Assembly (NCBI GenBank): GCA_035559275.1
Contig: DATMBN010000048.1
Span: forward strand, 998 to 64,997
Direction of reading: 5' to 3'
Origin: Burkholderiaceae bacterium
Lineage (GTDB): Bacteria; Pseudomonadota; Gammaproteobacteria; Burkholderiales; Burkholderiaceae_C
Length of the DNA stretch: 64,000 nucleotides
In this document: positions 1 to 3,545 of the stretch, one piece after another
How positions within the stretch are numbered: position 1 is the stretch's first letter
Layout of the letters: each line of letters opens with the position of its first letter
Program-made: the position numbers and the translations under genes
The notes under the pieces: model-generated
Seen by the model: only the letters and a program-made list of their open reading frames with translations
What the model was told of the DNA's origin: nothing
Database searches by the model: none

Positions 1-3000
1 TCGATGTCCTTGTAGCTCCAGCCCTGCTCATCGATGTAGCGGAAGCCGGGCTCGTCCTGGTGCTCGACCTTGAACAGCGCCGTCTTGACGATGCCCGTCT
101 CCTCGGTGGCATAGACCACCGGCAGCACGGTCAAGCGGGCGTTCTCGCCGCCGATGTCGATGATCTCCTGCACCGCGGCATCGAGCATCTTCCGCTGGTC
201 CTCGCTCAGGTCGGTGAAGAGGTTCTGCTCGACCATCATGCGGGCATTGACGTCGGGCTGGCCCGGATCGAGCGTCACGCAGGGCTGCCAGCCGAAGGAC
301 GCCGCCACCGTGTTGGCGATGTGCGTGCGGCCCTGCATTTCGGTCGGTCGGCCGCCGTACATCGTGTAGTGCTCGTTGACGAGCGCCTGGGCCATCACCG
401 CCGGGTTCTTGTTGAAGAGCTCGTAGAGCTTCTTCGGATCCTGACGATCGGCCGGATCCAGGTTGGCGGTGATGAATTGCTGCTGCTCCTGGTAGGCGCC
501 GGGGGTGGCGACCGCCGTCTGCTGCCGCTCGACTGCGTCGAGTGCGTCCTCGGCCTGCTGCAGGGCCTTCCAGGTCTCGGATTGCCGCTCGGCGCCCGTG
601 CCTCTCAGGTAGGGATGGTCCCGCAGCCAGGCGTCGTGCGCATTCCGTGCCGTGTCGACGCGTTGCTGTTGCCTGCCCCTGGCCTGGCGCATGTGCAGTT
701 CCTGCCAGTCCGAGCGCTTGTCCAGCGCTTCGGTCCGGGCATCCTCGGCCGTCTGCCGCAGACTCTCCAGGGACGCCGTCAGCGGACGGCCGGCGCGTAC
801 GTCGGCCTGCGCGAGCAGCCACTGACGGTTCGCATCTTGCCAGCGGATCGCAGCGTCGATCGCGGTCAGTTCCGCGCGCAACGCATCCTCGTTGTCTTGG
901 GCCTGCCGCAGCGTGCGATCCAGTGCCGTGGTGTCGCCGGTGGCGCCGTTGCGTTGCTCCTGCGCCTGCTCGCGCGCGGCGGTCGCATCCTGCAGCGACT
1001 GGTCCACCTCGGTCCTGCGCCTGGTCAGGTCATCGCTCAGGTTGAACGTGGGCATGCCGCCCTCGGGCTTGCCCACGCCGCTGGTGGCGGCCACCGGGGC
1101 CGGCGTGCCCGTCGCCTGCGAAGGCTGGATCTGGTGGAACTGGGCCAGGCTGGTCTCGACGCCGGCGCGGGTCTCACGTGCCTCGACCGCCCGGGCCTGC
1201 GCCTCCCACAACCGGGCGGTCACGGGGTTGATCTTCAATTCCTCGGGCTGCGCATACCGCATGGGCGCGCCCGCTCGCCCGTAGCCCGCATGGCCGGAAG
1301 GCTGCGAGCTGGTGGGCAGCCTGTCCTTGAAGATCGCGTAGTACCCGTCGCCGCGCTGCTCGACGCGGGTCCCGTCCTTCAGGATCCAGGTCTTGCCGTC
1401 ATCCGACACCTTGGTCCCGTCCGACAGCGTACGAAAGCCCTGGTCGTCCTTGGGCAGATCGCGGTTCCTCGCCTCCGCGAAGCTCGGGGGCGGTACGACG
1501 TCCGCCGTGCGGTCATAGCCGGGCGGGTACTCGTAGGTGACGACCTTCTGCCGCCGGTAGGCGCCGGTGCCGGCGGTCTCGATTTCCTTGCGCTGCACGA
1601 ACTCGTGGGTGTCGTACTCGTGCTGTGCGGCGAGCAGGTCGCGTTCCGCATCGATGAGAGTCAACCGGCTTTCGTAGTCCTGGACCTTCAGGCGCAGGTT
1701 CTCGTACTCGGCCAGTTCCTGGTCGAGTACGACCTTCTTCGCATCCTTGTCCGCGCCGGTGGCGCTCGTCCACGCCGCGCGTGCCTCCTCGACGTTGGTG
1801 CCTTGCTCGGTGAGCGCCTCGCGCGTGTGCGCCAGTCCCTGGCGGGCCTCCTGCTCCTGTTGCTGCAGCGTCTTGGTCGCACCCGCCTGCTGGTTCGCCT
1901 CCGACACGTCGGCGCGCGCCTGGGCCTCCAGGCGGTCCACCTTGGCCTGGGCGTCGATCACCGCCTGCGAGGGCTGCGCCGCGCCCGCATCGGTATCGGC
2001 TCGCTGCGCAGCAGCCAGATCGGCGCGCGCCTGCCGCAGGTCCTTCAGGCTCTTGAGTGCATCGGCATCGGCCTGGGCCGCGCGCTGTTCCTGCAGCTTC
2101 GCGCCCAGCGCCGTTTCGAGCCCGTCGATCTCGGCCTGGCTGGCACCGCGCGCACGCGCCTCATCGAGGGCGGACTGCGCGGAGCTCACTCCCTCGTTGG
2201 CTGCGTTGAGCTTGTCGGTGATCTGCTTCTCGCGCGCGAGCCATGGCGTGGCATCCAGGCGGCCGGGGGTGCCGGTCTTCGGATCACCGAACAGGTCGGC
2301 GTACGTCGTCTCCCAGGCCTGATTCGCGTTCTTCAGCCGGTTGTCGGCGTCCGCCACGCGCTGGTCCGCGTCCCACAGCGCCGCCGTCTCCTTCGGCAGT
2401 TCATGCCATTCGTCCCACCACCAGTCCTTGACCTCCTTGTACTGCCACTTGCCGTCGCGGAACTCCACGAGCTTGCCGGCATCGGTCCCTGGCCTCGCCC
2501 AGAACGCCTCGTTGTAGCCATCCTCGCCCTGCTGCGGCTGTGCCCGCGCCGCCCGGTCCCAGCCCGCCTGCGCCTGTGCCTGCTGGGCCTTGGCATCGAA
2601 GTGCTCCAACCGGGCCGCTGCCACCTCGTGCACGTCGCGGTGGAAGTTCTGCCTGTCGATCGCCTCCAGCAAGGTCTGGTTGGCCTGCTCGATCTTCTGC
2701 GGGTCGCCGCTCTGCTTGGCCTGCGCCACGCCGTCCTGCGCCTGCCGCACCTCGGCGTCCGCAATGCGCTTGTTGTAGCCGGTCTGCTCCTCGTTCGCCA
2801 CCAATTGCAGGCGATCGAGCTTTGCCTGCGACTCGTCGGCCTTCTTCTGCAGCTCGGCGGCTTCCTGTCGAGCCTCGCTGCGCGCCTGCTGGAAATACGG
2901 ATCGTGCCTGTCCGGCCCCGTGGGGCGGTCGTAGCTCTGCGCGGTCTCCTTCGCCTTGTCGGCAGCGGACTGCGCCTCATCGCGTGCCCGCATGGCATCG

Positions 3001-3545
3001 TCGATCTCCTTCTGCCGCCCCTGCGCCGCGTCGTACTGCTGGCGACGCAGGTCACTGACCTGCGCAGACTCGTGCTGCACCGTGTCGCGGATCTGATGGA
3101 CCTGCCGCTTCAGCCCTTCAGGGTTGAAGGCGGCACCCTGACCCGCGCGGTCGAGGATGGACTGCGCCTGAGCCCCGACCGCGGCCTTCACGTCGCCACC
3201 GCTCTGGCGTGCATGGGTCGCCACGACGCGCAGCTCCTGCGTCACTGCGCCCAGGTACTTGTTGAACGAATCGTCTAGCTGCCGCGTCTGCTCCTGCGAG
3301 GGTTGCTCGCCGTTCATCAGCTTCTGGTTGCGGGCCTCGACACCCTGCTCGACCTTCGCCTGCAGTTCGGCGGTGTGCTGCTGCGCCTGCTCGATCGCCG
3401 TCTGCCGGGCCTGCTGATGGTGCGGCGTCCGGCTCGGTGGGGGTGGAGGCGGAGGCGGCGGGGGCGGTGGCGGAGGCGGCGGGGGAGGCGGAGGCGGGGG
3501 TGGCGGAGGAGAGAAGACCCGACGGACCGCATCGAGAAACAACAT
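1..3545 (-). CDS. Giant (>1181 aa, C-terminus runs off the left edge) Pro/Gln/Ala-rich coiled-coil protein, candidate T3SS substrate; the last visible segment resembles DUF4781-type proteins
   Basis: ATG at 3545-3543 with AGGGG SD. I scanned this frame manually and found no stop down to position 3; it is absent from the ORF track because it is open-ended. Translates MLFLDAVRRVFS-P25-SRTPHHQQARQTAIEQ...LTVLPVVYATEETGIVKTALFKVEHQDEPGFRYIDEQGWSYKDI. It explains the 60..3278 + shadow ORF. The DUF4781 resemblance is from memory only. Confidence 0.85.
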   Translation of the reverse strand, partial: MLFLDAVRRVFSPPPPPPPPPPPPPPPPPPPPPPPPPSRTPHHQQARQTAIEQAQQHTAELQAKVEQGVEARNQKLMNGEQPSQEQTRQLDDSFNKYLGAVTQELRVVATHARQSGGDVKAAVGAQAQSILDRAGQGAAFNPEGLKRQVHQIRDTVQHESAQVSDLRRQQYDAAQGRQKEIDDAMRARDEAQSAADKAKETAQSYDRPTGPDRHDPYFQQARSEARQEAAELQKKADESQAKLDRLQLVANEEQTGYNKRIADAEVRQAQDGVAQAKQSGDPQKIEQANQTLLEAIDRQNFHRDVHEVAAARLEHFDAKAQQAQAQAGWDRAARAQPQQGEDGYNEAFWARPGTDAGKLVEFRDGKWQYKEVKDWWWDEWHELPKETAALWDADQRVADADNRLKNANQAWETTYADLFGDPKTGTPGRLDATPWLAREKQITDKLNAANEGVSSAQSALDEARARGASQAEIDGLETALGAKLQEQRAAQADADALKSLKDLRQARADLAAAQRADTDAGAAQPSQAVIDAQAKVDRLEAQARADVSEANQQAGATKTLQQQEQEARQGLAHTREALTEQGTNVEEARAAWTSATGADKDAKKVVLDQELAEYENLRLKVQDYESRLTLIDAERDLLAAQHEYDTHEFVQRKEIETAGTGAYRRQKVVTYEYPPGYDRTADVVPPPSFAEARNRDLPKDDQGFRTLSDGTKVSDDGKTWILKDGTRVEQRGDGYYAIFKDRLPTSSQPSGHAGYGRAGAPMRYAQPEELKINPVTARLWEAQARAVEARETRAGVETSLAQFHQIQPSQATGTPAPVAATSGVGKPEGGMPTFNLSDDLTRRRTEVDQSLQDATAAREQAQEQRNGATGDTTALDRTLRQAQDNEDALRAELTAIDAAIRWQDANRQWLLAQADVRAGRPLTASLESLRQTAEDARTEALDKRSDWQELHMRQARGRQQQRVDTARNAHDAWLRDHPYLRGTGAERQSETWKALQQAEDALDAVERQQTAVATPGAYQEQQQFITANLDPADRQDPKKLYELFNKNPAVMAQALVNEHYTMYGGRPTEMQGRTHIANTVAASFGWQPCVTLDPGQPDVNARMMVEQNLFTDLSEDQRKMLDAAVQEIIDIGGENARLTVLPVVYATEETGIVKTALFKVEHQDEPGFRYIDEQGWSYKDI
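3435..3509 (-). repeat. 25-codon polyproline tract (CCN x25, mixed codons)
   Basis: The + strand shows 25 consecutive NGG triplets from 3435 to 3509, in frame with the giant ORF (residues 13-37). Confidence 0.95.

Follow-up and report, generated by a model that had tools for sequence, protein, structure and literature searches.

We describe a giant gene of the DUF4781 family at the left end of a 64,000-nucleotide stretch of a Burkholderiaceae genome (assembly GCA_035559275.1; contig DATMBN010000048.1, here C48, positions 998–64997); this whole stretch is called the window. The gene lies on the minus strand directly 3' of sctU, in a gene cluster for type III secretion (the system is abbreviated T3SS) of the Burkholderia cepacia complex injectisome (BCI) type, and it continues beyond the window onto a second contig, C51. 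Comparison across genomes strongly supports a functional tie of the DUF4781 giant to the T3SS. We consider it probable, though far from certain, that the product is a modular carrier of effector or toxin domains exported by this T3SS. Export is suggested by the lack of a Sec signal together with the operon position and the specific linkage and co-occurrence of the gene with T3SS clusters.

Extent and domain architecture of the giant protein

The minus-strand open reading frame (ORF) begins with an ATG at position 3545 and runs through 1,181 stop-free codons to base 3, at the window edge. It starts 114 bp from sctU (3660–4691) on the same strand, and the G+C content (GC) at its codon positions 1/2/3 is 0.73/0.46/0.88, a coding pattern for a genome of ~70% GC. 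An initial annotation, made from the window alone, had described an open frame of >1181 codons at this place, and the frame count, the spacing and the codon-position GC agree with it. At 70% GC spurious long frames are common, and the plus strand carries a 1,091-codon antisense frame, which might suggest that the long frame is a chance ORF and no gene. The plus-strand frame (GC 0.88/0.45/0.72), however, is a shadow of the giant gene, and we rejected the chance explanation, to which we give practically no weight, on the codon-position GC pattern, the hundreds of colinear homologues and the conserved synteny.

The window belongs to an assembly of 3.87 Mb in 105 contigs (99.95% complete), and the host genome is assigned to Caldimonas on its UvrA, which shares 91% identity with the C. 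aquatica protein. Leftward extension of the contig, a check named in the initial annotation, showed that the frame continues without a stop to the end of C48, giving 1,514 aa. The remainder of the gene was located at the edge of C51 via protein homology, with the C-terminal halves of the two nearest relatives as queries; it occupies nt 2–5398, encodes 1,798 aa and is terminated by a stop. Over the C-terminal 1,813 aa of P0151, the closest relative, its product shows 68% identity. Next to the gene on C51 come a LysR-type regulator and, after it, one of the LuxR type, just as they do 3' of the orthologue in the syntenic metagenome locus L001. The assembly break falls in a low-complexity Pro/Ala/Gly-rich linker, and an overlap search with the first 400 nt of C48 matched no other contig. 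The two pieces were analysed separately and never joined into one sequence. Since the C48 part contributes 1,514 aa and the C51 part 1,798 aa, the gene is assigned at least 3,312 codons, and the protein is not one of ~1,200 aa. The window frame is the N-terminal ~45% of the gene, so that less than half of the protein is visible there; the parts that tell most about function, namely the hydrophobic module, the enzyme payload and the LysM-like tail, are all encoded outside the window. The parts of the gene within the window are as follows.

3..3545, minus strand: giant DUF4781 gene, first 1,181 codons; the ORF continues to the C48 end (aa 1,514) and resumes at C51 nt 2–5398
3435..3545, minus strand: leader MLFLDAVRRVFS plus Pro25 (aa 1–37); no Sec signal peptide
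486..3425, minus strand: long Ala/Gln/Glu/Arg/Asp-rich region (aa 41–1020), colinear with the first ~1,000–1,100 aa of relatives 2,200–3,800 aa long at 30–69% identity
2400..2450, minus strand: Trp cluster KWQYKEVKDWWWDEWHE (aa 366–382), common only to the two closest relatives
1266..1448, minus strand: short beta-rich segment (aa 700–760; SDGTKVSDDGKTWILKDGTRVE..GYYAIF), partly conserved among relatives, with a weak sub-threshold DUF6799 match
3..482, minus strand: start of the conserved carrier module (aa 1022–1401), an alpha/beta domain predicted with a confidence score (pLDDT) of about 88

The family assignment comes from Pfam. PF16013 (DUF4781) matches aa 1162–1337 with 72.1 bits against a cutoff of 27.9 (E = 4.7e-20), and a PF16013 profile search of the genome gave 72.8 bits, in agreement with the protein-level match. 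The window part alone matched no Pfam family, as the DUF4781 match needs residues past the window edge; once these were added, the earlier suggestion of a DUF4781-type protein, drawn from the last visible motif, proved right. NCBIfam returned no match for the C48 or the C51 part, and a single-protein search for related loci in genome contigs found nothing. An exhaustive HMMER search with aa 1022–1401 as the query recovered 424 proteins at E ≤ 1e-3, and 48 of these reach E ≤ 1e-30. The best matches are 2,200–3,800 aa long and carry the module at about residues 1,100–1,500, the same position as in the giant; named relatives include a "DUF4781 domain-containing protein" of Variovorax, Methylibium rhizosphaerae and Caldimonas brevitalea. 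Residues ~50–1400 are colinear with about 45 giants at 30–69% identity.

The DUF4781 module is predicted to have a novel fold, an alpha/beta domain followed by hydrophobic helices. In the AlphaFold2 model, built on an 18-sequence alignment, the alpha/beta domain takes up the first ~200 module residues and is predicted with confidence (pLDDT about 88). For the hydrophobic helices, which are Gly/Ala-rich (aa ~1232–1397) and encoded just outside the window on C48, pLDDT is 55–70, and the Kyte-Doolittle profile peaks at 2.2 (19-residue window) at aa 1232–1270. Foldseek found no significant match for the module in the PDB (best E = 0.35, TM score ≤ 0.26).

Preceding the module, the sequence details listed in the initial annotation could all be located. 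The protein starts with the 12 residues MLFLDAVRRVFS and then exactly 25 prolines (aa 13–37). Composition bears out the Gln/Ala/Glu-rich stretches, with Ala/Gln/Glu/Arg/Asp-rich regions at aa 41–330, 421–690 and 801–1020. The Trp cluster is flanked by a FWAxPG...GK motif that is conserved family-wide; the DGTxV segment has DGTKV and DGTRV at aa 709 and 724; TVLPVVY, TALFKV and RYIDEQGWSY begin at aa 1139, 1155 and 1169. The leader and polyproline run are kept in the nearest relative (L001: MSFLDSITRLFT-polyPro) and are not found in the wider family. They were rejected as a family-wide secretion signal, being common only to the closest relatives. A PDB sequence search with the N-terminal half returned only polyproline/collagen and leiomodin noise.

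The C51 piece consists, in order, of a Pro-rich linker, a small domain without a family match, ~450 helical residues, an Amidohydro_2 barrel, a second Gly-rich block and a tail of ~90 aa. A Pfam scan of the whole piece gave nothing; piecewise and alignment-wise scans were needed to reveal Amidohydro_2 and a weak LysM. Specifically, a 501-aa piece matches Amidohydro_2 (PF04909) with 30.9 bits against a cutoff of 26.4, as do seven of eight relatives, and its His/Asp columns H250, D252, H294, D352 and D388 (piece numbering) are invariant. The AlphaFold2 model of this payload has a predicted TM score (pTM) of 0.82, and its best structural matches are amidohydrolase-superfamily barrels, among them 4mup (Atu3138) and adenosine deaminase, at modest TM scores of 0.43–0.46. 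A PDB sequence search with the payload found nothing. Together, these data predict that the payload is a metal-hydrolase TIM barrel of the Amidohydro_2 type. The ~90-aa tail is conserved in 30 relatives, short ones included. LysM (PF01476) gave weak matches in 5 of 16 aligned tails (best E = 6e-4), with the tail of the giant itself below threshold, and some relatives are named 'LysM domain-containing' in their source records.

T3SS linkage and exchangeable payloads across genomes

We compared the genomic contexts of DUF4781 genes in a small sample, part of which was chosen without bias. Linkage to a T3SS holds for 10 of 13 contexts (the window, L001, L005, L006, L007, L008, G139, G621, L013, which equals G681, and L014). 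The linked contexts cover two phylogenetically distinct T3SS families (BCI in Betaproteobacteria, Rhc in Alphaproteobacteria) and three insertion points, which lie 3' of sctU, of sctR and of sctV. The loci L001 and L005 (Methylibium) are syntenic with the window gene for gene. The giant follows sctQ–sctR in L006 (Variovorax) and adjoins the cluster in G139, while some pilin or regulator genes, few in number, separate the T3SS from the giant in L007 and L008. Short members in L013/G681, L014 and G621 (Bradyrhizobium and Methylorubrum) immediately follow sctV, within clusters of the Rhc type that contain NolB and Y4YQ_C, and TPR-type genes flank Rhc-linked members. No genes of type VI, type V, type VII or type I secretion systems (T6SS, T5SS, T7SS, T1SS) were seen beside any DUF4781 copy.

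Two of these loci show further genes at the giant. At 2820–9001 of L007, sctU and the giant are separated by an inserted operon for type IV minor pilins and PilY1, and at 18646–21237 of L008 a gene for an 863-aa Ser/Thr protein kinase stands directly 3' of the giant gene.

To examine co-occurrence, 401 genomes were sampled evenly from the order. Three of them have the giant, and these are precisely the three whose SctC is at least 50% identical to that of the window (Fisher p = 9e-8); the SctC identity is 50–51% to the other giant-bearing genomes and at most 44% for the rest. All 14 genomes of the order with more distant T3SS secretins are without the giant. Co-occurrence with this T3SS clade had been proposed as a check on the initial annotation, and the giant turned out to co-occur perfectly with the BCI-like secretin within the order sample. 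In a phylum-wide sample, PF16013 was found in 5 of 401 genomes, and in four of the five the gene is inside a T3SS cluster. The earlier idea of a T3SS substrate had been drawn from location and co-regulation; the linkage and the co-occurrence strongly support a functional tie to the T3SS, and a T3SS-type promoter of the giant's own is not supported. 'Effector or translocon-like' was a fair bracket for the giant, and the reading we favour fuses both.

The payload position is occupied by different domains in different relatives. The giant of Caldimonas brevitalea carries Ntox5 at aa 1685–1809, and the payloads of other giants include Toxin-deaminase, GLUCM-like_C (338–356 bits) and a phospholipase-like domain. 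A B. cenocepacia protein, WP_321175898, has been reported with DUF4781 and a HopBF1 domain (PMC12580581). Short DUF4781 proteins (800–1,450 aa; Bradyrhizobium, Methylorubrum, Myxococcota) end in Endonuclea_NS_2, Colicin-DNase plus WHH, Ntox46 or AvrB_AvrC, and the short Rhc-linked members are without the long helical region. In Bradyrhizobium sp. CSA112 (L013), a YezG-like immunity protein (34.7 bits against 21.7) is encoded directly 3' of the Endonuclea_NS_2 member, and small ORFs without a family match follow the DUF4781 members in L014 and L015. This combination of a constant N-terminal half, variable toxin or enzyme domains and an occasional immunity gene corresponds, as far as sequence can tell, to a polymorphic-toxin architecture.

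The nuclease/immunity pair of L013 is followed, at 13954–15234 and 16041–19565, by a DUF1521 protein and then by a separate 1,174-aa LysM protein. DUF1521 is the NopE-type family of T3SS effectors. Because these two proteins lie beside the DUF4781 pair, this neighbourhood is an effector island.

The BCI-type cluster and the upstream region of the giant gene

The T3SS genes of the window and the non-coding elements discussed below are the following.

3546..3659, minus strand: sctU–giant gap, 114 bp, with the ribosome-binding-site (RBS) word CACTCAGGGG at 3553–3562 and a half-site-like word at 3640–3658; no recognisable promoter
3660..4691, minus strand: sctU, directly 5' of the giant; Bac_export_2 type in syntenic relatives
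4711..15461, minus strand: sctT, sctO-like, sctN, sctL, sctK-like, sctJ, 167-aa ORF, 67-aa needle-like ORF, sctD, sctC, sctS, sctV
10185..10220, minus strand: dyad ATTTCATGC-N20-GCATGGAAT, ~95 nt 5' of the 67-aa needle-like gene; absent in intact form 5' of the giant
15629..17430, plus strand: sctQ–sctR divergent pair; sctR end approximate
17474..18406, minus strand: LuxR-type regulator (Autoind_bind + GerE), right border of the island

The minus-strand order is sctV-S-C-D, the 67-aa ORF, the 167-aa ORF, sctJ, sctK-like, sctL-N-O-T-U and the giant, with housekeeping genes past the LuxR border. With its compact core, divergent sctQ–sctR pair, LuxR regulator and giant gene within the cluster, the system is assigned to the BCI type, whose occurrence is hereby extended to Caldimonas. 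LuxR and LysR genes also adjoin the giant in relatives and on the C51 side. No translocator, tip or gatekeeper family was found in the window T3SS cluster, in line with the earlier remark that no classical translocator is visible. The giant is the only conserved non-structural gene of the BCI cluster.

Between sctD and sctJ, the 67-aa ORF (9918–10121, minus strand) and the 167-aa ORF (9418–9921, minus strand) have no family match, and counterparts of 67–68 aa and 128–139 aa occupy the same position in all relatives. They are likely candidates for the needle (SctF) and inner-rod (SctI) proteins, which Wallner et al. did not identify in BCI systems (PMC8565462).

The initial annotation had also credited the giant with a shared box and a promoter of its own, and this could not be substantiated. 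We found no sigma-70-like site in 3300–4000, and PIP, hrpII and hrp boxes are absent upstream of the giant gene. The gap has several features in common with the region 5' of the 67-aa gene, namely the half-site-like word GTCCTACGGATCTTCGTGC (compare 10216–10234), a similar distance to the ATG and the RBS word CACTCAGGRG; neither the word TCTTCGTnGCTTnG nor the two common words are commoner than chance in the window. The dyad ATTTCATGC-N20-GCATGGAAT is kept 5' of the orthologous 67-aa gene in L005 (Methylibium), L006 (Variovorax) and L001 (metagenome), and at no more than one mismatch per half it matches two sites in the window against 0.1 expected. The upstream region of the giant fails it even at two mismatches per half. 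The copy at 10185–10220 is a candidate operator for the flanking LuxR- or LysR-type regulators. In L001 the true giant start (MSFLDSITRLFT-polyPro) lies ~9 bp after sctU, and the called gap in Methylibium is 44 bp. Co-transcription of the giant with sctN-O-T-U, with no promoter of its own, is the simplest reading of these data and appears the more likely one.

Two further observations concern other parts of the window. A second near-perfect copy of the dyad (TTTCGTGCCAGACCGAATTGATCAGGACACATGGAA) is present at 47505–47540, and because it is inside an 820-aa ORF (45809–48271, plus strand) it is probably not an operator. At 48000–54000, GC falls from ~0.65–0.70 to 0.55–0.60 and there are few ORFs with high GC at the third codon position; this region, which includes a 1,181-aa ORF at 48244–51789 (plus strand), may be a horizontally acquired island.

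Proposed function and comparison with known systems

In the reading that we favour, the giant would be co-transcribed with sctN-O-T-U and exported through the adjacent T3SS, and the DUF4781 module would be the constant carrier, directing cargo into this pathway. The hydrophobic helices would insert into the membrane of the target cell, where they could anchor the payload or help it across, and such a membrane-insertion module could stand in for the translocon genes without which these compact clusters occur. The LysM-like tail would bind cell-wall glycan, and the amidohydrolase would be the active payload of the Caldimonas copy. The giant has no Sec signal, and DUF4781 N-termini are rich in Pro, Ser and Ala. 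Taken alone, the self-translocator detail is something the giant perhaps does, and we hold it only tentatively. More speculative still is the idea that DUF4781 proteins are T3SS-delivered polymorphic toxins with their own translocator, in which the hydrophobic module would open the target membrane and the LysM-like tail would hold on to a cell wall. Compact injectisomes without translocon genes (BCI and some Rhc) would in that case be aimed at walled neighbours such as bacteria, fungi or algae as well as at animal or plant hosts. If this were true, nuclease-bearing members would need immunity proteins to shield the producer or related cells, the rule that the T3SS is not used by classical polymorphic toxins would be contradicted, and the missing cargo of the Burkholderia cepacia complex injectisome would be named.

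Several observations weigh against the favoured reading. The LysM assignment is not significant for the giant's own tail, and the hydrophobic part of the AlphaFold2 model has low confidence. Three of the 13 contexts are without a T3SS nearby, namely L015, the 10.8-kb P0193 contig and G036, where the BCI-like secretin is encoded on a different contig from the giant. There is no immunity gene 3' of the giant, where a divergent LysR gene comes next after the stop at C51:5398, nor did the other BCI giants examined have one. No T3SS chaperone gene lies beside the giant, and conservation of the N-terminal leader does not extend to the whole family. The first hydrophobic segment (2.2 over 19 residues) could favour the producer's own inner membrane over export, and few T3SS substrates proposed to date would equal the protein's >3,300 aa in size. 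As to G036, its secretin gene (C2:307162–309201) has one in-frame TGA, and it is the only genome in which giant and T3SS lie apart; its T3SS cluster may be decaying.

The most serious alternative gives the giant a structural or accessory role in the BCI, either anchored in the producer's envelope via its helices and bound to peptidoglycan via the LysM-like tail, or exported as a long surface filament or adhesin made of the ~1,000-aa helical region. Its fixed place in the cluster and its one-to-one occurrence with the BCI-like secretin speak for such a role, as do the tail and the strongly hydrophobic helices, and adhesion or biofilm roles have been left open for the BCI, which neighbours a lytic transglycosylase in Burkholderia (PMC8565462). 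In a structural part, however, one would expect neither an exchange of toxin and enzyme domains from one close relative to the next (Ntox5, deaminase, DNases, AvrB, HopBF1, amidohydrolase) nor pairing with an immunity gene within its family; moreover, the short Rhc-linked members do without the long helical region, and no Sec signal would bring the LysM tail into the periplasm. We regard this alternative as unlikely.

Less plausible again is a toxin that does not use the T3SS at all, in which DUF4781 would be a self-sufficient translocation or release module (or would depend on another exporter) and T3SS islands would merely be sites for mobile cargo. The three contexts with no T3SS nearby point this way, as do the toxin domains, which are common to T6SS, T7SS and Rhs systems, and the statement that classical polymorphic toxins do not travel via the T3SS (PMC3482391). 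Against it stands the linkage in two phylogenetically distinct T3SS families at several insertion points; even the genome with an unlinked copy, G036, still has the matching T3SS, no genes of the four other secretion systems were seen beside any copy, and there is no Sec signal. That the giant is an overgrown classical hydrophobic translocator (a homologue of SctE/SctB, NopX or HrpF) is very improbable. The coiled-coil-like region, the hydrophobic helices, the gene's place in the cluster and the lack of any other translocator there would suit it, but no translocator family was found at E ≤ 1 in Pfam or NCBIfam and no structural match by Foldseek, and the giant is 4–10 times larger than known translocators and carries enzyme domains. 

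Translocators of the T3SS (SctE/SctB; NopX, HrpF) resemble the giant in having a machine-linked gene and a helical or coiled region with hydrophobic helices predicted to enter the target membrane. They differ in family and fold, in size (about 300–800 aa against at least 3,312 aa) and in carrying no enzymes such as those of the giant. Other T3SS cargo is known that settles in a host membrane by means of a hydrophobic hairpin, such as Tir of enteropathogenic Escherichia coli, the chlamydial Inc proteins and Salmonella SseF/SseG. Unlike the giant, these proteins are small, are without swappable enzyme payloads and need a separate translocon, and they have no homology to it. The prePAAR/Rhs effectors of the T6SS are likewise secreted toxins with transmembrane helices of their own that are thought to aid membrane crossing, although they belong to another secretion system and their helices are N-terminal and Eag-chaperoned, whereas no Eag-like gene is present at the giant locus (PMC12881460).

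Polymorphic toxins such as CdiA, Rhs and LXG share with the DUF4781 family a constant N-terminal trafficking part, recombining domains from the same pool (Ntox5, Ntox46, WHH, Colicin-DNase, Endonuclea_NS_2, deaminase) and, after at least one DUF4781 member, a cognate-type (YezG-like) immunity gene. In contrast to them, the DUF4781 family is tied to the T3SS, and in the giants the payload is internal, with a conserved hydrophobic block and the LysM-like tail after it. Zhang et al. (2012) found no classical polymorphic toxins using the T3SS (PMC3482391), and our literature search found no published proposal of a T3SS-linked polymorphic carrier. Having DNase heads and an immunity partner, the DUF4781 proteins linked to the T3SS would blur the divide between host-directed effectors and inter-microbe polymorphic toxins, and secretion of a protein equipped with a membrane-insertion module of its own could explain how translocon-less injectisomes work.

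The closest known counterpart is the giant of the BCI itself. Wallner et al. (2021) described, inside the BCI cluster, a gene of >10 kb with a LysM domain and a luxR gene upstream, found in Variovorax and other Burkholderiales as well (PMC8565462). The BCI is the commonest T3SS of the Burkholderia cepacia complex, and a B. vietnamiensis BCI mutant has a rice-colonisation defect; no effectors were detectable, and the authors wondered whether the system secretes anything (PMC8565462). The published Burkholderia descriptions of the giant stop at domain matches and propose no function (PMC8565462, PMC12580581). The cargo-carrier anatomy with swappable enzyme heads would make the giant a concrete, testable candidate for the missing BCI cargo. 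The Caldimonas locus shares with the published one the compact sct set, the divergent sctQ–sctR pair, LuxR regulators, a very large embedded gene with DUF4781 and a LysM-type (in Caldimonas LysM-like) element, and the lack of known effectors; the Burkholderia and Caldimonas giants are likened here by the published descriptions (DUF4781, LysM) only (PMC12580581, PMC8565462). The two differ in that the Caldimonas gene follows sctU, whereas the published one lies between sctR/sctQ and the rest of the cluster, and in that an Amidohydro_2 payload and a Caldimonas host stand here against a HopBF1 kinase in the B. cenocepacia protein. The giant of the window is a new member of the uncharacterised BCI giant family, one that combines the traits of T3SS effectors with those of polymorphic toxins.

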